A DNA stretch of 64,000 nt from an uncultured Eubacteriales bacterium (GCA_900547955.1 URIR01000003.1:11711-75710); one strand, 5' to 3'. Positions 24,308 to 62,317 are shown, numbered from the stretch's first letter. Made by a program: numbers and translations. Notes: generated by a model not told the origin, from the sequence alone.

Positions 24308-24509
24308 TTTAGGAGCGCCTAAGCAGTTAAAGGGCCAGGGGGGCGGCGCGCCGCCCGGCCGAGCCAAAGGCTCGGCCGGGCCAGGCGGCCCGCATAATCC
24401 GGGGGCTTTTAGCCCCCGGATTATGCGGGCCGCCTGCTTTTGGCGCCCGTAAGGGCGCCAAAAGGGCGCGCCGCCCCCCTGGCCCTTTAACTGCTTAGGC
24501 GCTCCTAAA
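24308..24509. repeat. GC-rich cloverleaf palindrome (four-way junction), large member
   Basis: Perfect 45-bp outer arms at 24308-24352 and 24465-24509. They enclose three abutting perfect hairpins at 24353-24381, 24382-24436 and 24437-24464, with no unpaired junction nucleotide. Confidence 0.9.
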
Positions 24510-24528
24510 TTTATTTATCAGAATTTAT

Positions 24529-24948
24529 CTATACCCAAAAGAAGCCGGACTGCATGCTGCAGATCTGGCTTTTTCCTGTATTGGGATATAATTTGCGCTT
24601 CCTCTTTTGAAAGCTCTGTCTCCAAAAACGCGTTCCCATATCAGGACGAATATCCAGCAGTTCATTTGGATTCACTTTAAGAACGTTGCAGATAGAAGCG
24701 AGAATGTCTACGTCGGGGCGGTTAAGGCCCTGCTCCCAGTTGGATACGCGCGCATTGCTCACACTAATAAGCTTGGCAAATTTGATACCGTTGCGTATAA
24801 AGCGGGCATATTTCCGGCGGTATTTAAAAAATGCTTGATGGCCGGCGCACGATATATTCGGAGCAGTATAAGGCAATTTGCCAGGCGCTGGGGGTGGGGC
24901 TGAAACATTTTTAAATATTAAATTGGCATAGCCGGCTTCAAAAAGCAA
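24529..24948 (-). CDS. XRE-family helix-turn-helix protein (start uncertain, possibly decayed)
   Basis: The central stretch IKFAKLISVSNARVSNWEQGLNRPDVDILASICNVLKVNPNELL fits the Cro/C1 HTH pattern. The roughly 40-aa N-terminal extension has no recognisable feature. Confidence 0.5.
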   Translation of the reverse strand: MLFEAGYANLIFKNVSAPPPAPGKLPYTAPNISCAGHQAFFKYRRKYARFIRNGIKFAKLISVSNARVSNWEQGLNRPDVDILASICNVLKVNPNELLDIRPDMGTRFWRQSFQKRKRKLYPNTGKSQICSMQSGFFWV

Positions 24949-24975
24949 GCAAACGGATAAAGAATTTCTTGATGA

Positions 24976-26362
24976 GGATTACAGAGCCAGGGCGACCTTG
25001 TCTCTGCCCGCAGCCAAGGAGAAACTGGCGAGCGACATAATGTTTGTATATCCACAAGCGCGGATGTAGAGGAGGTGATGGTTGAAATGCTTTTTAATCT
25101 TAAGGCGCACGCTGAAAATTCGCAGGCCAGCGTTAAGGTCGGCGTCGTTATATTTAATAAGCAGGCTAACGTAACCTGTGTCCTTACCGATATTCAGACG
25201 GGCTATGAGGATATTTTAGAGGGCATCAGGACGGATATAAGCAGCGGCACCAATACTCATGCCGGTATCTTAGCGGGCAAAAAAATGCTGGATGAGGATT
25301 GCGCGGTGCCGGCCAGGCGAAAATATCTGATTTTTATAAGCGATGCGATAACATATATATAACGAAGAGCCTGCTGCTATTCCATCGCAGTTTGCGGAAA
25401 ACGCCGTATTTGCTGGTCCGGACGCATGGGCTAATAAATATCAGAATAATAATCCTCCAAGCGACTGTAATGAATTTTTGACTTCCGTCGGCGTTCAGAT
25501 TGAGGCGGATGGAGATACCTTTGAAGCAAACTACGGAGCAAAGGAGCCGTTTATCCCCTATTCAGAACGCAGCGGGCATGCTATGACGGTAGCTAAGGCG
25601 CTGTATAATACGGCCATGGCTTATAAAAGCGCCCAGGATGCGGGATATACCTGCTATGCCATAACAGCTTCCGCGTCGGCAGCCGCCTCCGAGCAATATT
25701 CATGGGGCCCTTCCTTTATGAATTATCTGGCTCAGGGAGAGAAGGTATCCTTTGACGGAATATACAATGAGGCAATATATCTTTTGGATGCGGGCAGCAG
25801 GGTTATTGACGTAATAGGCAGCGGGTAAGGCCAGTATAGGGACGGAGAGCTTATTGATAAGGGATATAATTTTGTAAACAGTCCGGAGACGCTGGAATTG
25901 AAGGTAGGGGAAGATAAATACGCGCTGACCCGGCTGGAGAATAAGGTATATGCCTTTGGAGAGGAGAACGGACAAAATCAATATCCCTTCATACTGCGTT
26001 ATTATCCCGAGGGGACTGCCTCAGAGCCGCGCGAGCATTTAGTTTGGGAAATTAACGCGCCGGTGGATATAACCAGACGGGCGAGCCTTACATATACTGT
26101 GGAGCTTGCCGACCCGCAGTCTGAGGCAGGGCTGTACACGCAGCTTTATACCAATGAGGAGGCAATTATATATCCTGTGGATACATGCGGCAGCGAAGGC
26201 GAGGGAGAATATTTTGAAAGACTTGCGGCAGCTTACAGAATTTTGCCTATGGAGGAGGAGCACCCGACGGGAGACGCCGGAGTTCTTCTGCTATGCTGCA
26301 TATTGGGCGTATGCGTCTCAGCCGTAATTTTGCTTAAAGTCTTAAAGGTCAGAAACGAATAG
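24976..26362 (+). pseudogene. Remnant of a vWA-domain, sortase-anchored surface protein
   Basis: Three ORF fragments (25075-25362, 25478-25828, 25898-26362) read through as one protein if two lesions are repaired. One is a frameshift at the (AT)4A tract at 25353-25361; the other is an in-frame TAA at 25826-25828. vWA motifs are present (SGTNTHAGI, LIFISDA). The C-terminus is HPTGD followed by a TM segment and a basic tail. The signal peptide and the DxSxS motif are missing. Confidence 0.75.
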
Positions 26363-26459
26363 AGGCCGGGGAGCAATTAGAAAACATTTAGTGCAGGAAA
26401 AACTCCTGGTCAGGGCGGGCCGCACGGCTATACTCCTGGATAAAGGCTGACGCTGCCAG

Positions 26460-26501
26460 AATAATGGACCGTCCATAATAGGATGGTCCATTATTTTTTT
26501 T
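26460..26501 (+). terminator. Intrinsic terminator after the vWA remnant
   Basis: Stem aataatggacc / ggtccattatt followed by a T-run. Confidence 0.65.
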
Positions 26502-26509
26502 GCGCCGGC

Positions 26510-26996
26510 GGAACCGTTCCGAGAGACTGATGAAATTGTACTGAGCTGGAAAAAGAGAAGAAAAGGGAAGCGGAACGTGAGAAAAATTTGTCTAGTATAT
26601 GAACAATTATAAGCATACTATATTTGGATATAACCATTTATTCCCTGTAAAAACCTGTGTAAAAAATCGTGAAAAGCAATAAAATTTAAAAAAAATCAGA
26701 AAAAAACGCAAAAATCTATTGCTTATCCACAGGTTTTTTGGTATCATTTATATTGCCGTCAGCGATTAGAGTAGCGCGGCGGCGATTTATAGTTCGGAGC
26801 TTAAAATGCTTTAAAAATATGCAAATCGCCCTTATATGGGCGTTTTTAGCCATTTAGGCCAATGAATAAATCTAGGGATTGTGCCTTATTTTAATAGGTC
26901 ATACACCATATAGAGTTATCAACAGCCTGTGGAAAAGTTTTGGACTATAAATTGTACTTTTTACTCGGTTAATATTTTTCTGGGGGTTGTTGAAGC
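26510..26996. promoter_or_regulatory. oriC-like AT-rich spacer with DnaA boxes upstream of dnaA
   Basis: One perfect DnaA box TTATCCACA at 26723-26731. TTATCAACA at 26916-26924 faces TGTGGAAAA at 26928-26936 (complement TTTTCCACA). Long A/T tracts lie around 26660-26715. Confidence 0.6.
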
Positions 26997-28322
26997 ATGC
27001 AGGATGCAAGTGAAATCTGGGCAAAGGTATCCGCCGTATTAAAAGAGACAAAGGAGATATCCAGCTTGGCCTATACTACCTGGCTTGCGTCTATAAAGCC
27101 GGCGCTTTTTCGGAACGACTGCCTATATCTGGTAGTACCCTCGGCGCTGCACCGAAATCATATTGTAGGAAACAGCAATTATAAAATATATATCAATACT
27201 GCGCTTAATATGGTCACGGGCAAGGAATGCTCTGTTGAGCTGCTGCTGGAGGGAGAAGTCAAGGATGTTATGCAGAGCGCCGTCCAGCCCAATAAATGGC
27301 CTATGCTCAACGACAAATATACCTTTGAAACCTTTGTTATAGGTCCCAGCAATCAGTTTGCCCAGGCGGCGGCTTTAAGCGTAGCCGAAGCGCCTGCTAC
27401 GCAGAATAACCCGCTTTTTATATACGGCGGCGTAGGGCTGGGCAAGACCCATTTAATGCATGCTATAGGCAACTATGTTTTGGAGCAGAATCCGGCTGTG
27501 CGCGTTTTATATACCACCTGTGAGAAATATACAAACGAATATATAGATTCCATACCTAAGAACCGGGTTGCAGCCTTTAGAGAGCATTACAGGAACAACG
27601 TGGATATTCTAATGATAGACGATATCCAGTTCCTCACCCGCAAGGAGCGTATTCAGGAGGAATTTTTCCATAATATTAACGAATTAGTATCGGCGAACAA
27701 GCAGATAATTATAACCAGCGACCGGCCGCCGCGGGATATAGCCACGCTGGAGGATAGGCTGCGCTCCCGCTTTGAGGGCGGATTGATAGTGGATATAACG
27801 CCGCCTGATTTGGAGACAAGAGTTGCTATTCTGCGCCTTAAGGCCGAGGCCTTTGGGGCGGTATTGGATAACGAGCTGCTGTTTTACATAGCCGAGCGGG
27901 CAAGCGACAACGTGCGCGAATTGGAAGGCTCTCTTAAGCGGGTTATAGCTTATTCCAGCATAATGGGGCAGGATATAACCTTTGAGCTGGTTTCGGAGGC
28001 TTTAAAGGACTATAACGCCGTACAGCAGCGCACCTTGACCGTGGATAAAATCATGGAGACGGTAGCGGAGTATTACGGCGTGGAGGTAGAGGAATTGGTG
28101 GGCAAAAAAAGAGACGCGGCTATAGTTATGCCCAGGCATATAGCTATGTATCTCTGCCGTGAGCATACCGACCTGTCTTTTCCCCGCATAGGAGACGAAT
28201 TTGGGGGCCGGGACCATTCTACCGTTATAAACGGCATAGGCAAGATACATCAGGCGCTTAAGACGGACCCTAAGGTAAAAACCTATGTGGAGGACATAGA
28301 GCGCCGGCTTCAAGGGGTTTAA
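26997..28322 (+). CDS. dnaA: Chromosomal replication initiator protein DnaA
   Basis: 441 aa; AAA+ Walker A GGVGLGKTHL; C-terminal DNA-binding domain DHSTVINGIGKI. Confidence 0.98.
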   Translation: MQDASEIWAKVSAVLKETKEISSLAYTTWLASIKPALFRNDCLYLVVPSALHRNHIVGNSNYKIYINTALNMVTGKECSVELLLEGEVKDVMQSAVQPNKWPMLNDKYTFETFVIGPSNQFAQAAALSVAEAPATQNNPLFIYGGVGLGKTHLMHAIGNYVLEQNPAVRVLYTTCEKYTNEYIDSIPKNRVAAFREHYRNNVDILMIDDIQFLTRKERIQEEFFHNINELVSANKQIIITSDRPPRDIATLEDRLRSRFEGGLIVDITPPDLETRVAILRLKAEAFGAVLDNELLFYIAERASDNVRELEGSLKRVIAYSSIMGQDITFELVSEALKDYNAVQQRTLTVDKIMETVAEYYGVEVEELVGKKRDAAIVMPRHIAMYLCREHTDLSFPRIGDEFGGRDHSTVINGIGKIHQALKTDPKVKTYVEDIERRLQGV

Positions 28323-28416
28323 AAACTGTTTCGTGCCGGACGGGCAATAAGGGCTGAGCATAAAGGCGCAGAGGCTAAGGCGTGCAGCACCGCTCAGACG
28401 GGGAGAATAAGCTAAA

Positions 28417-28504
28417 CAACCCGGCGGCGCCGCGGCCTGCGGCCGCGGGCCGGGCCTTTTGGCCCGGCCGGGCAGGCGCAAAGCGCCTGCGCGCCGCCGG
28501 GTTG
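28417..28504. repeat. GC-rich cloverleaf palindrome (four-way junction), member 2
   Basis: Outer stem caacccggcggcgc (28417-28430) pairs with gcgccgccgggttg (28491-28504). It encloses cgcggcc-tgc-ggccgcg (28431-28447), ggccgggcc-tttt-ggcccggcc (28448-28469) and gcaggcgc-aaa-gcgcctgc (28472-28490). Confidence 0.88.
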
Positions 28505-28838
28505 ATGATATTGAAAAACAAGTTAAGCTGCCGTCCTTTCGGTATGCGTTGATACTGTCTGCCGGCAGTCGTGCGCCCGCACGATAAGGCAAAATATGAG
28601 GAATGCCTTCCGTCTATTCGGGCGGAGGGCAATTTTAAATTTAGGCTTGCAACAATTGTTTTTATCATTTATGGTATGAACATATAAAGATTTTGAAACT
28701 CATTTATATCAGACAGGATAATAACTCTGTTTTTTGCCAGCAGAATATCAGATTAAAAGACGTATTTCACTTTCGGTTTTTGGTGGCAGGGACGCATTTT
28801 TTTATGAGTTGAGGAATTAGAATTTAAAAGGAGGGATA

Positions 28839-29114
28839 GACAATACAGTCAAAGCGCAATGCGTTTTTCATAATGCCCGTCGCGTCCGCTTTGCTGCGCG
28901 GTCATAAAAATATGCCCGGTATGTCTTTAATTGCGCGCCGCGCGGGTGTCAACGGGTTCTTATGCAAAAATCTCCGCCCGCATAGAAAAAGGGAATCTTC
29001 CAGCTTTGCAAGGCGGCAGGACGCAGAAATACCAGGCGTATTTTAAGGACGACAACGCAGCAAAACCGAGCAATTCACACTTTCGTCGGCGTACTGTACT
29101 CTGATTGTATTGTC
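28839..29114. mobile_element. MITE family 1, full-length copy (276 bp), TA-flanked
   Basis: Termini GACAATACAGTCAAAG... and ...CTGATTGTATTGTC are inverted. TA lies on both sides (28837-28838 and 29115-29116). By eye it is roughly 80% identical to the copy at 34174-34457. Confidence 0.8.
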
Positions 29115-29123
29115 TAAGTAAAG

Positions 29124-30605
29124 ATGAAAAATAAGCTTTTAGGTCTGCTGCTCTGCGGCTTGCTGTGCATAGGGCTGTTTCCGGCGCAGGTATTCGCCGC
29201 GGGCGTAAATGAGGGAATTATTGTAAACGGAGTGGATATTACTACGGCTCAGGATTATACCGTAGTTTGCGGTGAAGGCAAAGCTGTATATAATCCGCAG
29301 GAGCAGAAGCTGACGCTGGACAACGCGGAAATCACGGTAGGAGCGAAGGCGAGTTCTACTGCCGGCGAGCGTTACGGCGTCGCTATACAGGGCGGGATAA
29401 CTGGTACAGTCGAGGTTGTTTTGAATGGAAAAAACAGCATTATCCTGTCTGATACGCAATACAAAAATATGGGAATATGGGCGGCAGGCTCCAGCCTTAA
29501 GTTTTCAGGCGGGGGAAGCCTGGAGGTATCTCTTTATAATGATTCATTTCCCTCTATAATACAGGGCAGGAATCTGGAATTTGAAAAAGTAGATATTACC
29601 GGCAGGCTTTTGAACGAAGAAAGCCCTTGCGGTTATGCTGTCCGGACGACTGGTACGGTAATAAGCAATCAGTCCGCTTTTGAGATTACCGGCTTTGAGA
29701 CAGCGATTGATACCGGCTCGCTTGCTATGAGGAACGGCAGCAGCCTAAATGTTAAAACTTCTGCAGAATACGGAATGGGGGTATTTTCCGGGGATATACT
29801 TGTTGAAGATTCGCAGATGGAACTTCAGGTTCCGGATACCGGACTTTACTGCCTGGCTGGTAATTTGACAGTCAGCCGGAGCAGTATTGTTTGCTCGCAG
29901 GCGAACGTTGGTATGTATGCCGAAGAAGGGATAATAACGGTCAAAGAAGATTCCATGCTGAATTTAAATAACAAAATTTATGGCCTGCGAATTTATAACG
30001 GCAGTTTATCCATTAGCGGCGGCGTAATTCATGCGTCAGGCAGCAGAGGAGGAATCCAGGTTCTGAATGTGAAGGAGGATGAAACAGACACGCCGACTGT
30101 AGCTATCTTTATGGCGCCTGATTGGGCGGAAAAGGCCGGCGGAAAAGCCGCCGCGGCAGAGTGCTTGTATGACGACGGATATGACGAGCCGTATCCTGTT
30201 TTTATTACAACCTTTATTTCTGCAGAAGACAGTATACTGAATGAGGATTTAAGCAACGCGGTTACGTCAGTACAAATCCAAATCAAGGGCGCCGACTACA
30301 GCAGGGTGGAAGAAATGATAGAAAAGGCAAAGGCCCTGAATAAAGACGAATACAAGGATTTTTCAAAGGTGGAAGCGGCGATAGACGCCGTTATATATGG
30401 CAAGAATATTAAGGAGCAGGGCTTGGTAGACGATATGGCGGAGGCGATTGAGGATGCCATATCCTCGTTGGAAAAGAAGCTGGATACTGATATTCCGCAG
30501 ACGGGAGATAACGGTATGATAATTTGGATTGCTGTTATGCTCGCGGCAGGCGCAGGATTGTCCGGGACGGTAATCTGCGGCAGAAAGATAAAACGCAGCA
30601 GATAA
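29124..30605 (+). CDS. Secreted cell-surface protein with C-terminal sorting signal (IPQTGD + TM + basic tail)
   Basis: 493 aa; signal peptide MKNKLLGLLLCGLLCIGLFPAQVFA; repetitive beta-rich body; a helical ADYSRVEEMIEKAKALNKDEYKDF module; sortase-type C-terminus. Confidence 0.85.
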   Translation: MKNKLLGLLLCGLLCIGLFPAQVFAAGVNEGIIVNGVDITTAQDYTVVCGEGKAVYNPQEQKLTLDNAEITVGAKASSTAGERYGVAIQGGITGTVEVVLNGKNSIILSDTQYKNMGIWAAGSSLKFSGGGSLEVSLYNDSFPSIIQGRNLEFEKVDITGRLLNEESPCGYAVRTTGTVISNQSAFEITGFETAIDTGSLAMRNGSSLNVKTSAEYGMGVFSGDILVEDSQMELQVPDTGLYCLAGNLTVSRSSIVCSQANVGMYAEEGIITVKEDSMLNLNNKIYGLRIYNGSLSISGGVIHASGSRGGIQVLNVKEDETDTPTVAIFMAPDWAEKAGGKAAAAECLYDDGYDEPYPVFITTFISAEDSILNEDLSNAVTSVQIQIKGADYSRVEEMIEKAKALNKDEYKDFSKVEAAIDAVIYGKNIKEQGLVDDMAEAIEDAISSLEKKLDTDIPQTGDNGMIIWIAVMLAAGAGLSGTVICGRKIKRSR

Positions 30606-30667
30606 CCAAAGGGCATAATAAGAGACTAAAAAGAGAGCCGGGGTATTTCTCCGGCTTTCTTTTTGTA

Positions 30668-30771
30668 TGCGCGCGGGCAAAGACATATCCGGGCGTATTT
30701 TTAAGACCGCGCAGCAAAGCGGACGGGGCGGGCTCTTAAGCAAAAACGTATTGTGCTTTGAATGTATTGTC
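30668..30771. mobile_element. Rearranged or partial MITE family 1 copy
   Basis: atatccgggcgtatttttaagaccgcgcagcaaagcgga...aaaaacgtattgtgctttgaatgtattgtc matches the reverse complement of the left third of the full copies, including the terminal repeat. Confidence 0.6.
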
Positions 30772-30985
30772 CAGGCAATAACCGCATATATAATAATTTT
30801 ATATGCGCTTTCCCCAAATAGGGTTTTATCACGCAGTAAAATAGAAAATGCGGGCAAGAAACAGCCTGCTCCTTACCCGCTTTTTTCTCAGCCATATATG
30901 GCTGAAATTCTGTTTAATTATGTTATGGATATTGTTTTGTTTGCGCAGTTTTCTGGGTTAATCATTATTTAGACTATCTGGCGGG

Positions 30986-33808
30986 TCAAAGCTGCTTTCT
31001 GGAACGCAGACGTCTTTTGCGTATTAATAGGACCCACGCTAAAACGGCCAAACCGACTGCAAGCCCCAGAAGCGCGGGCAGCATCCAGGAGGCGCCGGTA
31101 TCCTGGGGAGAATCGGTCAGCTTTTTAAATGAGGCGGATACGCTTATGTCTGCTTGTATATTTTCCAGCGTATAGCTGCTTACCGCGCCTACGCTGCCGC
31201 CGTTTATTATTACGTCCTCAATTATATATCCGTCCTGCGGCGTTATTGTAACTGCTGCGCTTGAGCCGGGCTTAACACGGCCGTCCGGCTGGACGGTTAT
31301 AACGCCTCCCTCTGTTTGCTGAACGTTTATTTGGAAAGTCCTATTCTCCTGAACGGCCAGCTCCTTAGTCAGTCCCAGATTATCCAGATATATGTTGGAA
31401 ATGCTGTTTCCATCAGGCAGGAAGCCACGGATATCTATAGTTACCTGGTCCGCGTCGGACACATCTATTATGTTGACGCCGTTCCATTGTCCCTGCTGCA
31501 TGTGTTTAGGGTCAAGCGAAATGTATATATAGCCTTCAAAGTCTTTGGGAATTACTGCGTAGCGGGTATCCATAAAGCTGAGCCAGTCGTAGCGGGAGCC
31601 TATGTCGGTGCTTGCCTTGGAAATATTGCCCTGCATATCCTTTAGATATACATGGTCGTTAGTTTCTATAGCTGCCAGCTTCTGGGTGCTGTATAGTTTA
31701 GCCGAAAAGAACAGCTCGCAGCCCAACTGATTTTTAATATACATTGAATAGTATTTGTGGTCTAACGCACCGTAGGTTATAATGCCTGCAAACGCTTTGG
31801 AATTAATGGTATATATGAAATTTGCATTGTTTTCGGGCACGTTTGTCAGCGTCAGGAGCTGGCCCTGGCCGTCTGAAGCGGGTTTTAAGCTGAGCTGGGC
31901 TGTAGAATAGCCCTCTGTTTTTCCGCTTAGAGCAATGTAATTCCCCAGAGATTGGTCCGTGGCTTCATCAAAATTTATTATCTCCAGCCGCTCGCCTGGA
32001 AAGGCTATCTCTGAGCTGAGGGGCTGGGATATATTGCCGTAAGGGTCCAGGGCGTAAACGCTCAGTACGGCGTCTATGCCCGCGAATGAGCCGGTCATAG
32101 TATAGCTGAAGCTGCTTTGCTTTTCTCTCATGCCATAATCAGAGAGTATGCTTTGGGTACGCAGCACGGCTCCGGTATCCCGTCGGCTGAGCACGGCTTT
32201 ATAGCTCACTACCATTTCATCGTCCTGGGCCGCGCTGAAGGAAAACTCTAATTTATCGCTTGAGGCGGCGGTAATATTAAGCTGCGCGTCCTGGCTGAAG
32301 CTGGGCGCCTGAGAATTATCCCTGCGCGCGTCGGTATATATAAAATCCTCTTTGGCGAAGCTGCCTGTGCGGCCGGCGGCGCTGTTGATTACATAAGGCT
32401 GTTCGGACAGATATTCATGATAGCGGAAGGAATAAGGGTAAATGCGCACTTCGTTGCTGGCGTCCACCTCCACTATCATTGCGCTGAAGCTTACCGGTTC
32501 GCTGGCGGGCACGGCTTTAGGGTTATTATAGAACCAATAGCCGCCTACGACAGAAGTATAATATTCCTGCCTTACGCAGCTGGGAGAGGTTAGAGGCAGA
32601 TGAGTATGTCCGGAAAAGTTTATAATTTGAGAGTAGCTCTTCATTATTTCATAAGGATAGGACATAGACGCGATTGTTTCGTCCGAACCATAGCCGCCGT
32701 CTGGAGCCTGAAAATGCTGGAATACGAATATGGGCTTATCCGGGCCGTCCTGCTCAGCCTGAGCCAGGGAGTTTGCCAGCCATTGGGTATTCTGCGAATA
32801 GTCCGAGCCGCCGCGCGGTGAGTTTGTTATAATTTTGAAGCCGTTCAGGTCGTAAACGCCGTCCATTTCAAGCCCGATATATTTATTCCAAAGCGCGTCC
32901 GCCTCAGATTGGGACAGCCATCCCATGGAAGAGTTTAAATATTCATGATTGCCATAGCAGGATATGAATTGCGTGCCCTCCTTAAGAGAACCGTCAAGCG
33001 CGGCGCGAAGCTTTATATAATCCTCGTCCTGCGCGACCTGTACGTTATCTCCCGATGAAATGACGGCGTCCAGCTTATTATAAGAGGGATGCGCCTGCAC
33101 CATTTTGTAAAGATGGTCCATTGCGCTTTGGAAGGCGCCGGGCGCCTGTGAGCCGAAATGCAGGTCGGTTACCGCCAAAAAGCGCATTACAGGGATATAA
33201 TCTGGGTCGGACATTATGTATATTTCCTCCTCGTTTAGCGGGCTGAGCGCGCTTATATTGCTTATATCAAAGACTGTGGAAGAAGTAGGAGCGGCATAGC
33301 CCACGGCCAGCCCGTTTATATCTTTGCAGGGAAATAAGCTTAGGGGGAAGAGCAGCCAGCCGTCAAAGCCTGCCGACCAATACATGGGGAAGGCCCAGCT
33401 CATGCCGTTTATGCCGTTATAGTCTACAAGCTGCTTGATTTGGATTTGACCGTCAAGCGTAAGAGTTATTATTTCTCCGCCGGCATTCGGAATATATTCA
33501 GCTCCAGAGGAGTCCCTTGCTATAAGGGTCATCCCTCCTCCATTGGCTGAGCCTGAATTAAAGCGCACGGCTATATAGGAAGCGCCTGCCAGGACTGAGT
33601 TATCTATTTGGATAAAATCCAGGCGGTGAGTGTTCCAGTCGCGGCTGCCCGACTGCACTATGTCATAGCTTTGGCTGGATATTAATTCTTTTGCGTAGGC
33701 GACGCCATCCAGTTCAATAAAGGCGTCGTTTTGGGCCAGAGCGGGCGTAAATGCCAGCATGGTCATGGCCAGAATCAGGGCAAGGACAAGAGAAATGCTC
33801 TTTTTCAT
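30986..33808 (-). CDS. Surface-anchored calcineurin-like metallophosphoesterase, multi-domain
   Basis: 940 aa; signal peptide; phosphoesterase motifs DLHFG, SGDNV, GNHEY and GHTHL; a B-repeat-like module near the C-terminus; SPQDTGA followed by a TM segment and RKRRLRSRK tail. Confidence 0.88.
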   Translation of the reverse strand: MKKSISLVLALILAMTMLAFTPALAQNDAFIELDGVAYAKELISSQSYDIVQSGSRDWNTHRLDFIQIDNSVLAGASYIAVRFNSGSANGGGMTLIARDSSGAEYIPNAGGEIITLTLDGQIQIKQLVDYNGINGMSWAFPMYWSAGFDGWLLFPLSLFPCKDINGLAVGYAAPTSSTVFDISNISALSPLNEEEIYIMSDPDYIPVMRFLAVTDLHFGSQAPGAFQSAMDHLYKMVQAHPSYNKLDAVISSGDNVQVAQDEDYIKLRAALDGSLKEGTQFISCYGNHEYLNSSMGWLSQSEADALWNKYIGLEMDGVYDLNGFKIITNSPRGGSDYSQNTQWLANSLAQAEQDGPDKPIFVFQHFQAPDGGYGSDETIASMSYPYEIMKSYSQIINFSGHTHLPLTSPSCVRQEYYTSVVGGYWFYNNPKAVPASEPVSFSAMIVEVDASNEVRIYPYSFRYHEYLSEQPYVINSAAGRTGSFAKEDFIYTDARRDNSQAPSFSQDAQLNITAASSDKLEFSFSAAQDDEMVVSYKAVLSRRDTGAVLRTQSILSDYGMREKQSSFSYTMTGSFAGIDAVLSVYALDPYGNISQPLSSEIAFPGERLEIINFDEATDQSLGNYIALSGKTEGYSTAQLSLKPASDGQGQLLTLTNVPENNANFIYTINSKAFAGIITYGALDHKYYSMYIKNQLGCELFFSAKLYSTQKLAAIETNDHVYLKDMQGNISKASTDIGSRYDWLSFMDTRYAVIPKDFEGYIYISLDPKHMQQGQWNGVNIIDVSDADQVTIDIRGFLPDGNSISNIYLDNLGLTKELAVQENRTFQINVQQTEGGVITVQPDGRVKPGSSAAVTITPQDGYIIEDVIINGGSVGAVSSYTLENIQADISVSASFKKLTDSPQDTGASWMLPALLGLAVGLAVLAWVLLIRKRRLRSRKQL

Positions 33809-34173
33809 TAAAGTTCCTCCTTATAATTTTAACTAAATTGAGAACTGAGCTGCCATGAGGGGTATTTTAAAAGCTGCTTTAGGGGGGCTGGCTCACCAGG
33901 CATTTTATCGGCGGAATAAGTTGAATTGCAGACATTGGCAGAGCGTCCGCGCTTTTATAACAGATACTTTAGCATATAACTAGGGAGGAGTACAGAGACG
34001 GATATAACTAACAAGGAGACAAAACTAACGCCGGGATAATATTTATCCCCTTGCCGACGGGGACAAAAAAGCGGAAGGCAAAAGGAAAGGATGCCTTGGG
34101 GCTGAGCGTTTTTTAAGAAAATGCAGAGGGACGGCAAGCAATGCCGTCCCGTTAAATATTTTTTATTTCATTA

Positions 34174-34457
34174 GACAATACAATATAATACAATCAAAGT
34201 ACAATGCGTTTTTGGATAAATCCCGCCGCATCCGCTTTGCTGCGCGGTCTTTAAAATACGTCCGTATGTATTCAATCAGGCGCCGCGCTGCTGTCAACGG
34301 GCTCTTAAGCAAAAATCTCCGACCGCAGAGGAGGAAAATTATTCGGTTTTGTAAGGCGGCAGGGCGCAGAAATACCGGGCGTATTTCAAGGACAACAACA
34401 CAACAAAACCGAACAATTCACACTTTGGGCGGCGCATTGTACTTTGATTGTATTGTC
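34174..34457. mobile_element. MITE family 1, full-length copy (284 bp), TA-flanked
   Basis: 27-nt terminal inverted repeat tagacaatacaatcaaagtacaatgcg / cgcattgtactttgattgtattgtcta. It is perfect apart from a 10-nt duplication in the left arm. TA lies on both sides. Confidence 0.85.
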
Positions 34458-34492
34458 TATGCTCTTGAACATGTTATTTGATTCTGAGCGCG

Positions 34493-35677
34493 TTACAGCA
34501 GCTTATTAAGCCGCTTTACGGCCGCAAGGGTATTTTCATAGCTTCCGAAGGCGGTCAGGCGGAAATAGCCCTCGCCGTTTTTGCCGAAGCCTGCTCCGGG
34601 AGTGCCTGCAATCTGTGCGTTTTCCAGCAGATAGTCGAAGAATTCCCAGGAGTCCATATTATTGGGGCAGCGCATCCAGATATAGGGGGAGTTTTCGCCG
34701 CCGGTAAACCAGACGCCCTTAGCGCGCAGGCAGTCGGCTATTATGCTGGCGTTTTGCTTGTAATAGTGGATATTTGCCTTTATCTGGCGCTGGCCCTCGG
34801 GTGAAAATACGGCGGCGGCGCCCTTTTGCACTATATAGGACACCCCGTTGAACTTGGTGGTCTGACGGCGCAGCCAGAGCTTATTAATGCTTACGCCTTC
34901 CCGCTCCAGTTCCATGGGCACAATAGTGTAGCCGCAGCGGGTGCCGGTAAAGCCCGCGGTTTTGGAAAGGGAGCATATCTCTATGGCGCATGTGCGCGCG
35001 CCCTCTATTTCATAGATGGAGCGGGGCAGGTCGCCCTCTACAAAGGCCTCATAGGCGGCGTCAAAGAGGATTATGGCGTTTCGGGCGTTGGCATAGTCTA
35101 CCCAGGCTTTAAGCTGCTGACGGTTGTATACTGCGCCGGTGGGATTATTGGGAGAGCAGATATATATTACGTCCGCCTGTATGTTTTTATCCGGAAGGGG
35201 AAGGAAGCTATTTTCGCCGTTGGCGTCTATGTAATTTACCGTTCGGCCGTCCATTATGTTGACGTCTACATATGCCGGATATACAGGGTCGGGGATAAGG
35301 GCGGAGTTGGAACGGTCGAATAAATCAAGGATATTTCCCAAATCGCTTTTAGCTCCGTCGCTTATAAAAATTTCCGAATCCAAAAGGGAAACTCCCTTTT
35401 GCTGATAATAGCCTTTAATGCCGTTTTTCAAAAATTCATAGCCATAGGCCTGAGCGTCGGGGCCATAGCCATGAAAGGTTTCGGCCCGGCCCATCTCCTC
35501 TACGGCCTGAGCAAGGGCGTTAACAACCGCGGTGCACAATGGAAGGGTTACGTCTCCGATGCTGAGCTTTATAACGTCGGCGTCGGGGTGAGCTGATTTG
35601 TATTCGGCTATTTTTCTGCCCGTTTCGGCAAAGAGGTAGCTGTCTTTTACATCCAGATAGTGCTTATTGATTTTCAT
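34493..35677 (-). CDS. dapL: LL-diaminopimelate aminotransferase
   Basis: 394 aa. The N-terminus INKHYLDVKDSYLFAETGRKIAEY and the class-I aminotransferase body are typical of DapL. It lies adjacent to dapF. Confidence 0.88.
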   Translation of the reverse strand: MKINKHYLDVKDSYLFAETGRKIAEYKSAHPDADVIKLSIGDVTLPLCTAVVNALAQAVEEMGRAETFHGYGPDAQAYGYEFLKNGIKGYYQQKGVSLLDSEIFISDGAKSDLGNILDLFDRSNSALIPDPVYPAYVDVNIMDGRTVNYIDANGENSFLPLPDKNIQADVIYICSPNNPTGAVYNRQQLKAWVDYANARNAIILFDAAYEAFVEGDLPRSIYEIEGARTCAIEICSLSKTAGFTGTRCGYTIVPMELEREGVSINKLWLRRQTTKFNGVSYIVQKGAAAVFSPEGQRQIKANIHYYKQNASIIADCLRAKGVWFTGGENSPYIWMRCPNNMDSWEFFDYLLENAQIAGTPGAGFGKNGEGYFRLTAFGSYENTLAAVKRLNKLL

Positions 35678-35712
35678 TATGTATCTCCTTTCGGTATAAG
35701 AATTTTAATGCA

Positions 35713-35863
35713 GGGGGGCCGCCCCGCCCTTAAAAGGAGGGCGCGCCCTGGGGACGCTGGAATCTAACCGCTTAAGCGGAAACCGGTTTTTATTCGGACG
35801 CAGGCAATTTTGAGTCCGCGCCCGGCCCTTAAGGCGCGCACGTTCTGCGCGCGCCTTAAGGGC
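35713..35863. repeat. GC-rich palindrome cluster between dapF and dapL
   Basis: The motif is present in reverse orientation at 35713-35748. The palindrome ccgcttaagcgg is at 35769-35780. A 15-bp perfect stem gcccttaaggcgcgc / gcgcgccttaagggc spans 35825-35863. Confidence 0.8.
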
Positions 35864-36012
35864 ATTATATATATCCCCGCCCGCGGCCCTGAGCCGCTGC
35901 GCGCTGCGCCGAGGCGTTTATATTGAGCATGGGCCGTAACTGCGCAGGCCGCTTTGCGCGGGTATTTGCGTTTTAGCTTTTAAAGGCCTCCGTTTTATGG
36001 GCATAAACTATT

Positions 36013-39000
36013 TTACACCATAACCGTGCCGTCAAAGACCTTTACTGCGTTGCCTGTCATATACACCTCGCCCGTATCGGTATACCTTATCTTAAGCTCT
36101 CCGCCCAGCAGCTTAACGGTTATATCGGTATTTTTATCGCAGAGTCCGTTTTCTACGGCTGCTACGGCCGCCGCGCAGGCGCCTGTGCCGCAGGCCCAAG
36201 TTTCCCCGCTGCCCCGCTCCCAGACGCGCATTTTAAGAGTAGCGCGGTCTATAACCTTGACAAATTCGGCGTTGACCCTCTCGGGGAACAGCTCGCTGTG
36301 CTCAAACTGAGGACCAATCTTTTCCAGCGGGAAGAAATCTACGTTTTCAACAAATACTACGCAGTGGGGATTGCCCATGGAGACGCAGGTTATATGGTAA
36401 TTTTCCCCGCCTATATTTACCTGCCGGCCTATGACCTTATCTCCCTCTAATTTTACCGGCACCTCCTCCGGCCTGAGCTGCGCCGCGCCCATATTCACTC
36501 TGGCCGAGGTGGCTACGCCGTTCTGCGTATACACCCTTATGCTCTTTATGCCCGAAAGGGTTTCAAGGGTCATAACCTCTTTATTAACCATATGGTTGTC
36601 GTATAAATATTTGGCGACGCAGCGGGACGCATTGCCGCACATCCTGCCTTCGCTGCCGTCCAGATTGAACATGCGCATTTTGGCGTCCGCCTTGGAGGAG
36701 GGGCATATTAATACCACGCCGTCGCCTCCTACTCCGAAATGCCTGTCGGCCAGGCGTATGGACAGCCCCTCCGGGTTGTCTATATGCTGCTCAAAGGCGT
36801 TAAAATAGATATAGTCGTTTCCGCAGCCGTGCATCTTGGTGAACTTGAGCTGGGTGCGCTTGGTGCGCATATGGTTGATGTCCACCAGCTCGCAGTTCAA
36901 TTCGGAATAGCGGCTCTTTATGCTGTCGGCTACGGCGTGAGCCGTGTCTATGGAGGTCAGGCAGGGTATGCTGCGCTCTACCGCCTTGCGCCGTATTTTA
37001 ACGCTGTCCCTGCCGGGCAGGCGGCCTTTGGCGCTGGTGGAGATAAGATAGTCTATTTTGCCGCTCTCTATAAGGGTGAGGGTGTTGACGTCGCTTTCGT
37101 GTATCTTGCTGACTATCTCGGCCTCCATGCCTGAGGCCTTTATAATTTCAGCCGTGCCCGCCGTAGCGTATAATTTAAAGCCCAAATCATAGAATTTCTT
37201 GGCTACTGCCGCAATCTCGGGCTTATCAGAATCGCGCACCGAGAGGAATACGCCCTTTTTGGAGGAGCTGACCGCCTTGCGCAGCTTATAGCCCGCCGCA
37301 ATAAGCCCTTTATAAAGCGCTTCCTCCAGGGTTCCCGCCAAGCCCAGCACCTCGCCCGTGGATTTCATTTCGGGCCCAAGATGGCTGTCCACGTTGGCCA
37401 GCTTTTCAAAGGAGAATATGGGCACCTTAACCGCGAAATACGCGCCCTGGGGATAAAGCCCCGTGCCGTAGCCCATATCGTAGAGCTTTTCGCCCAGCAT
37501 GGCGCGGGTGGCCAGCGCCACCATGGGTACGCCCGTTACCTTGCTTATATAAGGCACGGTCCGGGAGGAGCGCGGGTTGACCTCTATTACATAAAGCTGG
37601 CCGTTATATATGACGTACTGGATGTTTATAAGCCCCTTGGTATTCAGAGCCAGAGCCAGGCGGCGGGTGCAGTCCACTATGCGGCTGACCATGCGGTCGC
37701 TTAAGTTGTAGGCGGGATATACGCTTATGGAATCGCCCGAATGCACGCCCGCCCGCTCTATATGTTCCATTATGCCGGGGATGAGTACGTCCTCCCCGTC
37801 GCAGATGCCGTCTACCTCTATTTCCAGCCCCATAAGGTATTTATCTATTAATACCGGATTCTCTATGCCCTGGGAGAGGATTATCTGCATGTATTCCCTG
37901 ACGTCCGAATCGTTAAAGGCGATTATCATATTCTGGCCGCCCAGCACATAGGAGGGACGCAGCAGCACGGGATAGCCTATTTCATTTGCGGCGGCCAGCG
38001 CGCCCTGAGCGTCGGTTACCGAATGCCCCTTGGGCCGCTCTATCTTTAATTCCTCCAGCAGTTCGTCAAAGCGTTCGCGGTCCTCCGCCCGGTCTATGCT
38101 GTCCGCGCTGGTGCCTAAAATGTTTTCTCCCCGTTCAGAAAGGAACCTGGTCAGCTTGATGGCCGTCTGGCCGCCGAAGGCTACTACGACGCCCCAGGGC
38201 TTTTCTGTTTCAAGCACGTTGCGCACGTCCTCGGGAGTGAGGGGTTCAAAATAAAGCCGGTCGGCGGTGTCAAAGTCGGTAGAGACGGTTTCGGGGTTGT
38301 TATTGACTATAACCACTTCAAAGCCGGCGTTTTTAAGCGCCCAGACGCAGTGCACCGAGGCGTAGTCAAATTCTATGCCCTGGCCTATCCGGATGGGGCC
38401 GGAGCCGAATACTATTACCGTCCGCTTGCGCTCGGGCAGCTCCTGAATAAATTCCTCAGCCTCGTTTTCCTCTTCAAAGGAGGAGTAGAAATAGGGGGTT
38501 TCGGCGCTGAATTCGGCCGCGCAGGTATCCACCATCTTAAATACCGCAACAGCGGGATTCTCTACCCTTTGCCCCGAAAATTCCTCTATGACGCTGTCTA
38601 AAAAGCCCATGCGCTTGGCGCGCAGGTAGGTCTCTCTGTCAAAGCCCTGCTTAAGGGTGTTTTCCATATCTATGATGTTTTGAATCTTATATAGGAACCA
38701 TAGGTCTATCTTGGTTATGTCGTGTATTTCCTCGGGGGAAACTCCCTTCCTGAGCGCGTCGGCCACGATAAACAGGCGCTCGTCGGTAGTTTCATGCAGG
38801 CGGGAGAGCGCTTCCTCCCGCGGCAGGTCGTATTTTTTGGAATAGAGGCTCTTAAGCCCTATTTCGGCGCCCCTTACCGCCTTTAGCAGGGCTTCTTCAA
38901 AGGTAACGCCTATGGCCATAACCTCGCCCGTGGCCTGCATCTGGGTGCCTAACTGGCGTTTGGCGTATACGAATTTATCAAAGGGCCATTTTGGCAGCTT

Positions 39001-40062
39001 AACTACTACGTAATCCAGCGCAGGCTCAAAGCAGGCGCTCTTGCCCGTTATGGCGTTGGCGATTTCGTTGAGATTATAGCCTATGGCTATCTTGGCGGCC
39101 ACCTTGGCTATGGGATAGCCCGTGGCCTTGGAGGCCAGCGCGCTGGAGCGGGATACGCGGGGATTGACCTCTATTACGGCGTATTCAAAGCTCTCGGGAT
39201 TGAGGGCGAACTGGCAGTTGCAGCCTCCCTCCACCTTTAGGGCGGAGATAATGTCCAGCGCCGCCGTGCGCAGCATCTGATATTCCTTATCGGCTAAGGT
39301 GACGGCGGGCGCGACTACTATTGAATCTCCCGTATGTATTCCTACGGGGTCTAAATTTTCCATGCTGCATATGGTTATAACGTTGCCTGCGCCGTCCCGC
39401 ATGACCTCGAATTCAATTTCCTTCCAGCCGGCAATGCATTTTTCCACCAGTATCTGGCCTATGGGGGAGAGCCTTAGGCCGTTGACGGCAATATCCGCCA
39501 TTTCCTCGTCGTTATTGACTATGCCGCCGCCGCTGCCGCCTAGTGTGAAAGCTGGGCGGATAATGAGGGGATAGCCTATTTCACGGGCGAAGGAGAGCGC
39601 GTCCTCAAGGGTGGTCACTACTCTGGAGGGAATGCAGGGCTGATTAATGCTCTGCATGGTGTCCTTAAACAGCTGGCGGTCCTCGGCTTTATCTATGGTT
39701 TCAGGATTGGCCCCCAGCAGGCGCACGCCCATCTGCTCCAAGAAGCCGTCCTTGGCTAACTGCATGGAGAGGGTCAGGCCCGTCTGGCCGCCTAAGGTGG
39801 AAAGCAGGCTGTCCGGGCGCTCCTTTTCTATTATGCGCTTTATTACGGGCAGGGTTAAAGGCTCGATATATATGCGGTCGGCCATAGCGCTGTCCGTCAT
39901 TATGGTGGCCGGATTGGAATTAACCAGGACTACCTCCAGGCCGTCCTCCTTAAGCGCGCGGCAGGCCTGGGTGCCCGCGTAGTCAAATTCGGCCGCCTGC
40001 CCTATGACAATGGGCCCGGAGCCTATAACCATGACTTTTTTTATGCTTTTGTTAAGCGGCAT
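36013..40062 (-). CDS. carB: Carbamoyl-phosphate synthase large subunit fused in frame to diaminopimelate epimerase
   Basis: Single 1349-aa ORF. Residues 1-1064 are a full-length CarB (two ATP-grasp halves plus an MGS-like tail). Residues 1065-1349 (nt 36870-36013) are a full DapF (FTKMHGCGNDY, GNASRC, ERGSGETWACGTGA). Confidence 0.93.
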   Translation of the reverse strand: MPLNKSIKKVMVIGSGPIVIGQAAEFDYAGTQACRALKEDGLEVVLVNSNPATIMTDSAMADRIYIEPLTLPVIKRIIEKERPDSLLSTLGGQTGLTLSMQLAKDGFLEQMGVRLLGANPETIDKAEDRQLFKDTMQSINQPCIPSRVVTTLEDALSFAREIGYPLIIRPAFTLGGSGGGIVNNDEEMADIAVNGLRLSPIGQILVEKCIAGWKEIEFEVMRDGAGNVITICSMENLDPVGIHTGDSIVVAPAVTLADKEYQMLRTAALDIISALKVEGGCNCQFALNPESFEYAVIEVNPRVSRSSALASKATGYPIAKVAAKIAIGYNLNEIANAITGKSACFEPALDYVVVKLPKWPFDKFVYAKRQLGTQMQATGEVMAIGVTFEEALLKAVRGAEIGLKSLYSKKYDLPREEALSRLHETTDERLFIVADALRKGVSPEEIHDITKIDLWFLYKIQNIIDMENTLKQGFDRETYLRAKRMGFLDSVIEEFSGQRVENPAVAVFKMVDTCAAEFSAETPYFYSSFEEENEAEEFIQELPERKRTVIVFGSGPIRIGQGIEFDYASVHCVWALKNAGFEVVIVNNNPETVSTDFDTADRLYFEPLTPEDVRNVLETEKPWGVVVAFGGQTAIKLTRFLSERGENILGTSADSIDRAEDRERFDELLEELKIERPKGHSVTDAQGALAAANEIGYPVLLRPSYVLGGQNMIIAFNDSDVREYMQIILSQGIENPVLIDKYLMGLEIEVDGICDGEDVLIPGIMEHIERAGVHSGDSISVYPAYNLSDRMVSRIVDCTRRLALALNTKGLINIQYVIYNGQLYVIEVNPRSSRTVPYISKVTGVPMVALATRAMLGEKLYDMGYGTGLYPQGAYFAVKVPIFSFEKLANVDSHLGPEMKSTGEVLGLAGTLEEALYKGLIAAGYKLRKAVSSSKKGVFLSVRDSDKPEIAAVAKKFYDLGFKLYATAGTAEIIKASGMEAEIVSKIHESDVNTLTLIESGKIDYLISTSAKGRLPGRDSVKIRRKAVERSIPCLTSIDTAHAVADSIKSRYSELNCELVDINHMRTKRTQLKFTKMHGCGNDYIYFNAFEQHIDNPEGLSIRLADRHFGVGGDGVVLICPSSKADAKMRMFNLDGSEGRMCGNASRCVAKYLYDNHMVNKEVMTLETLSGIKSIRVYTQNGVATSARVNMGAAQLRPEEVPVKLEGDKVIGRQVNIGGENYHITCVSMGNPHCVVFVENVDFFPLEKIGPQFEHSELFPERVNAEFVKVIDRATLKMRVWERGSGETWACGTGACAAAVAAVENGLCDKNTDITVKLLGGELKIRYTDTGEVYMTGNAVKVFDGTVMV

Positions 40063-41815: not shown

Positions 41816-43039
41816 TCAGCCCTCCGTTTTGCCGCCCGTTATGCGGGCCAGATAATTTTTGTAAAGCAGGGGGGGCATATTTTGAGTTATCAGCGGGCTT
41901 TTCAGAGAACGGCGGGCCGCCTCGGAGAGGCTTAATGGAAGCGCGCTTATGGGCTGCGCTTCAGGCCGGGCCTCGCGCTTTATGCCGTCCAGGCCGGCCA
42001 GTATAACTGCTGAAAGAGCCAGATATGGATTGCAAAGCGGGTCGGGAGAGCGCAATTCCAGCCTGACGTTTTCGCCCGAGGCGGCGGGGATGCGGATTAT
42101 TTTAGAGCGGGCGCCCCTTTCAAAGCCTAAAAAATGAGGGGAGCTGAGGGCGCTTAAGCGCTTATAGGAGAGGGGAGAGGGATTTAAAAAGGCGGTGATA
42201 TCCCCGATATTTTCCAGTATGCCCGCCATAAAGCTCTCAGCCTGAGGGCAATGGCCGTCTGAAGCCGCTTTAAATATATTCTTGCCCTCCTTAAAGAGAG
42301 AAAGATTAAAATGCAGTCCGCTGCCCGGCGCGTTTTCAAGGGGCATGGGTTCAAAGCTGGCGTGCAGCCCGCTGCGCGCGGCGGCGGTGCTTATCACCCA
42401 TTTGACGGTTATAAGCCTGTCCGCCGTGGTCAGGGCGTCGTTATATTTAAAGTCTATTTCGTTCTGCCCCGGCCCCTTTTCGTGATGGGAGCTTTCGGGC
42501 GGGATGCCCATATCCTCTAAGGTAAGGCAGATATCCCTGCGCACGTTTTCTCCTCTGTCTAGTGGGGAGACGTCCATATAGCCCGCCAGGTCCAACGGCT
42601 GGTTGGTATTCATGCCGTGCTCGTCCAGCTTAAAAAGATAAAATTCGCATTCTGCGCCCGCCTTGACAGCATAGCCTGCTTCTGCGGCCTGATTTTGAAC
42701 GGCAGAGAGCAGACTGCGGCAGTCTCCCTCAAAGGGTTTGCCCGAGGGATATTTTATATTGCACATAAATCGCGCCACCCGTCCGTGGGATGGGCGCCAG
42801 GGGAGTATGGAGAGGGTGGAGGCGTCGGGGCAGAGGAAGAGGTCGCCGGTCACGGCGTTTTCAAAGCCGGGAACGGAAAATGCGTCCAGAGCTATGCCTT
42901 TTTCAAAGGCCCGTTCCAATTCGCCGGGCATTATGGAAATATTTTTCTGTCTGCCTGTTAAATCGCAGAAGGCCAGGCGAATAAATTTAACGTCGTTTTC
43001 CTTGACGAATTGCAGTATTTCGTTAATTTTATAGGTCAT
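41816..43039 (-). CDS. glnA: Glutamine synthetase family protein (short, divergent type I-like)
   Basis: 407 aa with GS catalytic-domain motifs (HHEKGPGQNEIDF, GSGLHFNLSL, ELRSPDPLCNPYLA). It is shorter than the canonical ~440-aa GlnA and diverges around the SYKRL segment. Confidence 0.85.
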   Translation of the reverse strand: MTYKINEILQFVKENDVKFIRLAFCDLTGRQKNISIMPGELERAFEKGIALDAFSVPGFENAVTGDLFLCPDASTLSILPWRPSHGRVARFMCNIKYPSGKPFEGDCRSLLSAVQNQAAEAGYAVKAGAECEFYLFKLDEHGMNTNQPLDLAGYMDVSPLDRGENVRRDICLTLEDMGIPPESSHHEKGPGQNEIDFKYNDALTTADRLITVKWVISTAAARSGLHASFEPMPLENAPGSGLHFNLSLFKEGKNIFKAASDGHCPQAESFMAGILENIGDITAFLNPSPLSYKRLSALSSPHFLGFERGARSKIIRIPAASGENVRLELRSPDPLCNPYLALSAVILAGLDGIKREARPEAQPISALPLSLSEAARRSLKSPLITQNMPPLLYKNYLARITGGKTEG

Positions 43040-43294
43040 ATTTTTCCCTCCGCGGCGCGTTTTTTATCCTTATTTATATTATACACCATTGCGCGCTAAA
43101 AACAAAGCGTTTTATTTAGGGCCTGGTGCTGAAAATATCGGCGTCCGCACTGGGAAGGGAGGCGTTCGGCTTTTTCAAACGGCCGGCCCGGGTGCGTTTT
43201 GAGCGAAAAACGAGGGTTTTTGCTGTATTTTAACAATAACAACTTGCTATTATCCTTTCTTATGTGCTATAATTACCGCCGTGAAAATTGTTTT

Positions 43295-43543: not shown

Positions 43544-43570
43544 TAATGCTGAAGGAGGAGATTGATTTAT

Positions 43571-46851: not shown

Positions 46852-46856
46852 AATCA

Positions 46857-46988
46857 GAATGAAGAAAATTTGCGCGGGATAAAGCGCGTTTGCAGTAGAA
46901 ACGTACCGGGTGGTACCTGGAAGCAAAGCAACGCGGCAGGACGCAAATTTTATGCATTCTGGCCACGCAGTTTCTTGTAAACTTAGGG
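46857..46988. mobile_element. Partial copy (right part) of repeat family 2
   Basis: aagcaaagcaacgcggcaggacgcaaattttatgcattctgg...tttcttgtaaacttaggg aligns with 52650-52713. It ends 10 nt before the rpsF -35 box. Confidence 0.65.
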
Positions 46989-62287: not shown

Positions 62288-62317
62288 GGGGTGGGATAAG
62301 CCCCCGGATTAAAAAAC

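Follow-up and report, generated by a model that had tools for sequence, protein, structure and literature searches.

Among described systems, those closest to the element at positions 28417-28504 of the window (by which we mean the whole 64,000-nucleotide stretch of DNA analyzed here) are the REP/BIME repeats of Enterobacteria and Pseudomonas, REPINs included. Like the element and its relatives, these are short, GC-rich, intergenic sequences dispersed mostly 3' of genes, composed, mosaic-like, of a few hairpin modules that can face either way, variable among strains and found at rearrangement endpoints. REPs have been described as imperfect palindromes of 20-40 nt carrying a GTAG or CGTC tag (PMC3733652). 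The hairpins of our element are perfect, with neither GTAG nor CGTC at their ends, and no RAYT (IS200/IS605-like TnpA) gene was found among the window ORFs scanned. The arrangement differs too: REP/BIME elements set single hairpins side by side, whereas our element nests three perfect hairpins within one long, perfect outer stem. Among organelles, the GC clusters of yeast mitochondria and the double-hairpin elements of fungi are comparable, and sponge mitochondria have been reported to carry repetitive hairpin-forming elements (RHEs; PMC2800124). Such organellar elements resemble ours in being GC-rich hairpin modules, dispersed between the genes of an AT-richer genome, that vary among close relatives and have no known transposase, but they are organellar and lack long locus-specific outer stems, and no homology is implied. 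Template switching, whose signatures are multiple compensatory changes, stem extension and loop inversion (PMC8794818), leaves products that have these features, and perfect stems besides, in common with our elements; there, however, the process acts on single hairpins in RNA genes, not on a dispersed family of nested palindromes. The attC sites of integrons likewise are folded single-strand structures bordering variable DNA, but attC is imperfect and needs extrahelical bases, core sites and a nearby IntI, none of which was seen for our element. Full-text literature searches found no described bacterial counterpart, and the architecture, in which three perfect hairpins and a shared inner repeat lie inside a locus-specific perfect stem, differs from that of both the REP/BIME and the organellar elements.

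The host is a gut Christensenellales bacterium of the Candidatus Neochristensenella clade, and the copies in it were judged from ~67 kb of one genome. We compared the window with ten independent assemblies encoding a DnaA protein identical to that of the window (L001-L010); with two sister species, represented by a Candidatus Neochristensenella gallicola MAG (L011, DnaA 99% identical) and a MAG labeled Selenomonadales (L012, 98%); with a further strain of the L011 species (L034) and a sister-species locus (L070); and with more distant DnaA relatives (L062, 96%; L065, 75%; L066, 68%; L013-16, 57%). DNA extending to the left of the window was available as L075, and a metagenome scan with DnaA yielded only two additional close loci. 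The sequence QALW01000044.1 (L012/L035) is titled "Selenomonadales bacterium" yet is syntenic with the window and with Neochristensenella, and this label is probably a taxonomic error. Within the window, a minus-strand ORF of 1,349 aa (36013-40062) comprises a complete carbamoyl-phosphate synthase large chain and a C-terminal diaminopimelate epimerase domain, which would be either an unusual fusion or the result of a lost stop codon.

Folding of the window sequence gave the 88-base element, hereafter cl-3, a 14-bp outer stem enclosing perfect hairpins of 7, 9, and 8 bp. Read on the plus strand, the 5' arm of the outer stem (CAACCCGGCGGCGC, 28417-28430) includes the inner terminal repeat CCCGGCGGCGC of the family, and the 3' arm (GCGCCGCCGGGTTG, 28491-28504) is its perfect complement. 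Between the arms lie hairpin 1 (CGCGGCC-TGC-GGCCGCG, 28431-28447; 7 bp, loop TGC), hairpin 2 (GGCCGGGCC-TTTT-GGCCCGGCC, 28448-28469; 9 bp) and hairpin 3 (GCAGGCGC-AAA-GCGCCTGC, 28472-28490; 8 bp), and only G28470 and G28471 are left unpaired at the junction, where the L011 copy has GG too. With a GC content of 81%, cl-3 had an RNA minimum free energy of -86.7 kcal/mol, compared with -58.0 ± 3.8 kcal/mol for dinucleotide shuffles (z = -7.56), and 0 of 200 shuffles matched this stability; folded as DNA, it gave z = -8.64. It starts 94 nt past the dnaA stop codon (dnaA end, 28322). The preliminary description had given this fold exactly (14-bp stem, three hairpins, two unpaired bases at 28470-28471); its placement of the element in the spacer downstream of dnaA, a gene now assigned by Pfam, also holds, and the two other clean cloverleaves that it mentioned are present at 6335-6426 and 24308-24511.

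We also asked whether the fold corresponds to a known structured RNA. ARAGORN found 0 tRNA or tmRNA genes in the window; the stems are far too long and too perfect and there are no conserved loops. Only the outline of a four-way junction is shared with the tRNA cloverleaf. No Rfam family matched at the gathering threshold, the best sub-threshold score over cl-3 being 15.9 bits (E = 1.5), and relaxing the limit to E = 5 brought in nothing but noise. No intrinsic terminator was called at 28417-28504, where the stem is followed by ATGATATTGAAAAAC, and the nearest call lay at 28604-28631.

The element is one member of a repeat family. The copy cl-1 (6335-6426, minus strand) is of the same sequence family as cl-3 in the opposite orientation and likewise has a 14-bp outer stem and three hairpins, and cl-2 (24308-24511), which starts 38 nt after the rplQ stop codon, has a perfect outer stem of 45 bp and hairpins of 13, 26, and 12 bp (z = -21.7). 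What the family shares is an inner terminal repeat that reads GGGGGGCGGCGC or CCCGGCGGCG, together with a set of hairpin modules (GCAGGCGC, GGCCGGGCC and CGCGGCC). In each copy, the inner inverted repeat encloses three perfect hairpins and is itself surrounded by an inverted repeat of 14-45 bp that differs from locus to locus; beyond the shared inner repeat, the outer stems are locus-specific and partly AT-rich. Compared with the terminal repeats expected of a MITE, the outermost 14-30 bp of every stem is thus locus-specific, and it is the inner repeat that is shared. When cl-3 and the L011 copy were aligned with the reverse complements of cl-1 and the L012 copy, 48 columns were invariant and the common structure comprised 33 pairs. 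A second subtype comprises four elements: cl-2, its orthologue in L011, an element that L062 carries 860 bp past dnaA, and one newly found in L075. All four keep the terminal repeat of the first subtype and have a middle hairpin that is long (~26 bp) and variable, three also have a TTTTGGCGCC hairpin, and the L062 and L011 elements share both the terminal repeat and that hairpin with cl-2. The stem GGCCGAGCC is common to both subtypes; cl-2 has it in its first hairpin, and the L011 copy downstream of dnaA in its second.

A covariance model of the first subtype, run over ~410 kb of window and relatives' sequence, recovered the known copies plus a single new one, ~2.5 kb left of the window (L075 16096-16222, E ~1e-5). 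A further three-hairpin element lies ~0.5 kb past the right end of the window, and at 61965-62305 there is a compound nested hairpin cluster (z = -14.3), which begins with GGCGGCGGCG and is probably a compound relative of the family. This cluster occupies 340 nt of intergenic DNA 12 nt past the 3' end of a glycerate kinase gene and contains ~8 perfect hairpins (stems ≤18 bp) inside weaker outer pairings; GGCGGCGGCG at its start resembles the family terminal repeat, and L069 is identical to the window there. Including the cluster, six elements were counted in ~67 kb, all intergenic and in both orientations, and further copies were found in sister Neochristensenella species. Conversely, the covariance model found no copy in the loci of relatives with 57-75% DnaA identity, and pattern scans and blastn returned nothing similar from phages, plasmids, and viral contigs. 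Other GC-rich intergenic regions of the window, at 35670-36020 and 43030-43570, were not unusually structured (z = -1.2 and -1.6), and the phenomenon is confined to discrete elements. An identical element sequence was recovered in independent assemblies that differ in source and contig-naming style. The element is real, it belongs to a sequence family, and that family is restricted to the clade.

Comparison of the copies revealed that the two arms of a stem change together. The predicted pairs of nine elements comprised 450 G-C, 171 A-T, and only 5 G-U (5 of 626), and the four-way alignment held two-sided changes in 7 of its 33 pairs and one-sided changes in none. For example, a G-C pair in hairpin 2 of cl-3 is A-T in L011, both sides being altered, and in the middle hairpin of cl-2 the window and L012 differ at four positions, all mirrored on the other arm. 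Loops were found in inverted form as well: the loop of hairpin 3 is AAA in the window and TTT in L011, and for the middle loop of cl-2, window-type strains have TTT where L001-type strains have AAA. Even the whole core after dnaA is inverted in L012, where the covariance model scored 78 bits on the minus strand versus 49 on the plus, while the window cl-3 scored 80 bits plus versus 30 minus; despite this inversion, L012 has part of the outer stem (CTAAAT..CCCGGCGGCG) in common. These two-sided changes and flips are seen directly in the alignments, and together with the locus-specific outer stems of 14-45 bp, the two-sided changes and the two loop inversions match the published template-switch signatures (PMC8794818). 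Selection on an RNA should leave room for G-U pairs while preserving loops and polarity, so the pattern points to the DNA level; since G-U pairs are nearly absent and both the loops and the whole core invert, the constraint or process would act on DNA.

In the outer stem of cl-2, the G-run and C-run (24341-24347 and 24473-24478) have lengths of 6/6, 6/7, 7/6, and 7/7 across assemblies, which may reflect sequencing noise in homopolymers, or indels that arose in one arm and were then copied to its partner. Tandem perfect hairpins of 17 and 10 bp lie at 6503-6600, upstream of the S10 leader, and are conserved in L070; between hairpin 6503-6543 and its L070 orthologue, the indels are symmetric, affecting both arms. 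A piece of ~30 nt (6560-6591) recurs inverted at ~35705-35746 and in L011 and L012.

The form of cl-3 found in the window is not the usual one. In 7 of the 10 same-species assemblies, the full-length element spans 132 nt, and its outer stem is 36 bp and perfectly paired (CGGGCGGGGAGAATAAGCTAAATAACCCGGCGGCGC and its complement). In the window, L005, and L006, homology to the other strains breaks off within the 3' outer arm, at 28503; from there, a strain-specific segment of 2,441 bp (28504-30944) takes the place of 61 bp in L001-type strains, which comprise the remaining 3' arm and a canonical bidirectional terminator hairpin. On the other side of the element, 28395-28416 (CAGACGGGGAGAATAAGCTAAA, plus strand) is the orphan remainder of the longer 5' arm, which in L001-type strains pairs with the 3' arm missing from the window strain. 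It bears substitutions at 28396 and 28398 (2 observed vs. 0.22 expected, P ~0.02), although this excess is weak. In the 14th pair of the window fold, C28417 is a substituted base, T elsewhere, and its partner G28504 is where the strain-specific DNA begins. Judged from these alignments, cl-3 in the window is a truncated stump of a longer element. Two strains lack the cloverleaf: in L010 it is gone via a 95-bp deletion between GCGCCGC(T/C)CG repeats, and L034 has neither the cloverleaf nor the neighboring MITE, the cloverleaf junction sitting between CTCTT repeats. In unrearranged strains, the entire spacer downstream of dnaA measures 284 bp, with the cloverleaf, the bidirectional terminator hairpin, and a convergent gene.

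Within the strain-specific segment, we found an AT-rich tract (GC 0.355 over 28600-28799), a MITE copy, a 493-aa ORF (29124-30605), and an inverted partial MITE. Of the spacer contents reported earlier, the AT-rich stretch and the MITE were confirmed; the supposed surface-protein gene is the 493-aa ORF, which has a signal-peptide-like start, as read from DNA, and no Pfam hit. In L006, this ORF is split into ORFs of 311 and 178 aa. MITE copies lie at 28843-29117 (full), 30679-30771 (inverted partial), and 34187-34459, and also at 52438-52714 and 46843-46961. That the 493-aa ORF is bracketed by a full and an inverted partial copy suggests MITE-mediated arrival. The window holds two ordinary MITE families; the second, whose terminal repeat is GTCAGAAGGCATAAAATTTGCG, also occurs in L011, where it separates dnaA from the cloverleaf, and in L070, ahead of the S10 operon. 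In L011 and L012, the aminotransferase gene (window 34493) comes immediately after the cloverleaf; 28504-34492 is missing there and is therefore lineage-specific.

Over 9 kb around dnaA, the window and the L001-type strains differ by two large events. The first begins at 24508/9, at the last base of the cl-2 outer stem, and sets 2,001 bp against 78 bp; the second begins at 28503/4, inside the 3' arm of cl-3, and sets 2,441 bp against 61 bp. The segment involved in the first event (24509-26509) is present in the window, L011, and L012 and is replaced by 78 unrelated bp in L001-type strains. Since it is present in L011 and L012, the L001 type is derived and that event was a loss. The 78-bp filler had no match among the comparison sequences. 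At 25075-26362, there are short ORFs, among them a 95-aa piece of a von Willebrand A domain, that look like remnants of a decayed gene. Additionally, L076 carries a small deletion within the outer arm of cl-1; L068, reached via the M3 peptidase gene for strain variants of cl-1, extends on the wrong side of that gene. Seven contigs start inside cl-2 (L005, L006, L008, L009, L010, L012, and L035), while L004 has an N-gap inside it (~2258-2280). With seven contig starts and one N-gap in cl-2, the palindrome is therefore a recurrent assembly breakpoint. Positions 1-46 of the L009 contig are Nextera adapter sequence (TCGTCGGCAGCGTCAGATGTGTATAAGAGACAG). Together, these comparisons show the elements to be unstable and to serve as preferred rearrangement endpoints, for which cleavage or misreplication may be the cause.

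The position of cl-3 next to dnaA had drawn attention to the replication origin. The dnaA gene (26997-28322, plus strand; 441 aa; Pfam Bac_DnaA, Bac_DnaA_C, and DnaA_N) stands on the same strand directly downstream of the S10-spc-alpha ribosomal protein block, block and gene together occupying 6924-28322. No dnaN was found downstream of it or among the window ORFs scanned, in agreement with the preliminary description, and dnaA was without a following dnaN in every relative examined (L062, L065, L066, L013-16, L011, and L012; 96% to 57% DnaA identity). In L062 the genes downstream of dnaA are GAPDH, parB, and gidB; in L065 an FGGY kinase gene takes that place, and the classic rnpA-yidC-jag-trmE-gidA block lies upstream; L066 has thrS there; and in L013 the ORF that follows is hydrophobic, a putative membrane protein. 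The cloverleaf is missing from L065, L066, and L013-16. Between the window and L062, the common part consists of dnaA and ~380 bp upstream only, and the dnaA neighborhood is therefore fluid in the clade, independently of the element. Among relatives with 68-96% identity, the neighborhoods include an RHS toxin with GAPDH-parB-gidB, the rnpA-yidC-jag-trmE-gidA block, and trmFO with thrS. In the host genome, gyrB and gyrA are adjacent on the minus strand (1697-3604 and leftward, L075), at a distance of ~25 kb from dnaA and transcribed away from the S10 operon, with no recF or dnaN between them; the classic dnaA-dnaN-recF-gyrB block is fully dispersed.

Upstream of dnaA lies an AT-rich (32-36% GC) cluster of DnaA boxes at 26723-26936 (TTATCCACA at 26723, TTATCAACA at 26916, and TTTTCCACA at 26928, minus strand), a region partly conserved in L062 and L065. 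Between 28049 and 31379, which covers cl-3 and the downstream spacer, there was no DnaA box within one mismatch. GC skew was positive on both sides of dnaA, from ~-8 kb to +64 kb (~72 kb) except over gyrB, and with no sign change at dnaA it was uninformative for placing the origin. An origin at the strand switch at ~6.2-6.9 kb was also considered and rejected, there being only one near-consensus DnaA box and a skew that is positive further left as well.

The alternative that cl-3 is the scar left when a rearrangement took dnaN away, or a cruciform that the origin uses or tolerates, is on this evidence highly unlikely. The element does adjoin dnaA, with a DnaA-box cluster and an AT-rich region 1.5 kb upstream, but the other copies lie far from dnaA, and dnaN is missing across the clade, also in genomes and strains without the element, so that the dnaN and origin reading fails. 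The unrearranged spacer, at only 284 bp, leaves no room for a second oriC half. The breakpoint proposed in the preliminary description therefore survives in part: a rearrangement breakpoint does exist at 28503 (2,441 bp for 61 bp), but its link to dnaN does not, since L065, L066, and L013-16 have the same dnaA arrangement without the element. Nor did the suggested cruciform at the origin find support, given that there is no DnaA box in or after the element, the skew is steady, and strains L010 and L034 lack the element. The position of cl-3 next to dnaA is incidental, and a false lead is thereby removed: the odd location of dnaA, after the ribosomal protein operons and without dnaN, is clade-wide and not caused by the element. 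We regard it as almost certain that the palindrome was not made by an assembler; contig ends and N-gaps are frequent inside cl-2, and one contig starts with adapter, yet the same internal sequence occurs in many independent assemblies and sister species carry diverged orthologues.

A role at transcript 3' ends is possible, if on balance unlikely. Here the element would act as RNA, blocking read-through or 3' exonucleases or providing an RNase III site, and pairing would be selected for stability. The positions agree with such a role, since copies follow the stop codons of rplQ by 38 nt, dnaA by 72 nt (counting the full arm), a HAD hydrolase gene by ~15, an AMP-binding gene by ~6, and the glycerate kinase gene by ~12; the folds are extremely stable, with perfect stems of 36-45 bp, and the structure is kept across species as the sequence changes. 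In E. coli, REP elements at similar positions stabilize the upstream mRNA. However, no T-run follows cl-3 and no terminator was called there, and L001-type strains have an ordinary bidirectional terminator hairpin, with its own T-run, ~30 nt beyond the cloverleaf, which is therefore not needed for termination. Furthermore, cl-1 sits between divergent genes, with a minus-strand M3 peptidase gene on one side and the plus-strand S10 operon on the other, and precedes the S10 leader (6770); dnaA is the same in strains without the element, and the G-U frequency and the free inversion of loops and core are unexpected under RNA selection. That the elements are instead sites of structure-specific recombination, attC-like four-way junctions 3' of which a putative recombinase inserts or exchanges strain-specific segments, we consider improbable. 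Variable DNA was found 3' of a cloverleaf in four comparisons (window and L001 at cl-2 and at cl-3, this lineage and L011 plus L012 after cl-3, and L011 and L034), and both differences between the window and L001 are replacements rather than clean deletions. Against this, no integrase or recombinase was found among the scanned window ORFs, the variable segments have no second element as a boundary, the cl-3 breakpoint falls within the stem rather than at a fixed core site, the pairing is perfect, with none of the extrahelical bases of attC, and the MITE copies flanking the 493-aa gene give it an ordinary route of arrival; 24509-26509 is ancestral, so at least that event was a loss. A wider version is very improbable: it would have a recombination system swap surface-protein genes 3' of cloverleaves and help to move the dnaA and DnaA-box module in the genus, a module that is bracketed by cl-2 and cl-3 and has three neighborhoods among relatives with 75-96% DnaA identity (L062, L065, and the window).

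With moderate confidence, we read the family as a dispersed REP/BIME-like repeat of nested palindromes, selfish or neutral, that is kept perfect by template switching and behaves as a fragile site. Under this explanation, both arms of every stem would evolve as a unit because one arm is rewritten from the other by template switches within a strand at replication (quasipalindrome correction or template-switch mutation); such switching would yield purely Watson-Crick pairing, inversion of loops, flips of the core between the outer arms, and outward extension of the stem. We infer template switching from the patterns of change, and strong selection for pairing could also give two-sided changes. 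Tolerance would explain why copies remain between genes, usually just beyond a gene's 3' end; the distance from a stop codon to the start of the element is 6-72 nt for five of the six copies, a distribution that also fits a transcript 3'-end function. The potential to form hairpins or cruciforms would make the elements fragile, with deletions and replacements starting at element bases, and fragility of this kind may be why little of the cl-3 3' arm is left and 2.4 kb of strain-specific DNA now adjoins it.

The family is presumed to be mobile, but among the copies and sites compared we saw neither a target-site duplication nor an unambiguous empty site, and no transposase accompanied the elements. 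The "empty" site of L034 fits a deletion between CTCTT repeats equally well, the absences in L034 and L010 may be deletions or assembly collapses, and the flank of cl-3 is duplicated in inverted, not direct, orientation (TTTTATTGAA/TTCAATAAAA).

If the favored reading of a dispersed, template-switching palindrome family is true, this is a bacterial repeat family made of perfect nested palindromes, that is, of four-way junctions rather than single hairpins, whose arms visibly co-evolve, flip, and seed rearrangements. For genome work in the group, the elements account for Christensenellales metagenome assemblies breaking at particular intergenic sites, and they call for caution in annotation, since they mimic structured RNAs. 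The family would then offer a natural system in which to follow template switching and palindrome instability in a gut anaerobe.
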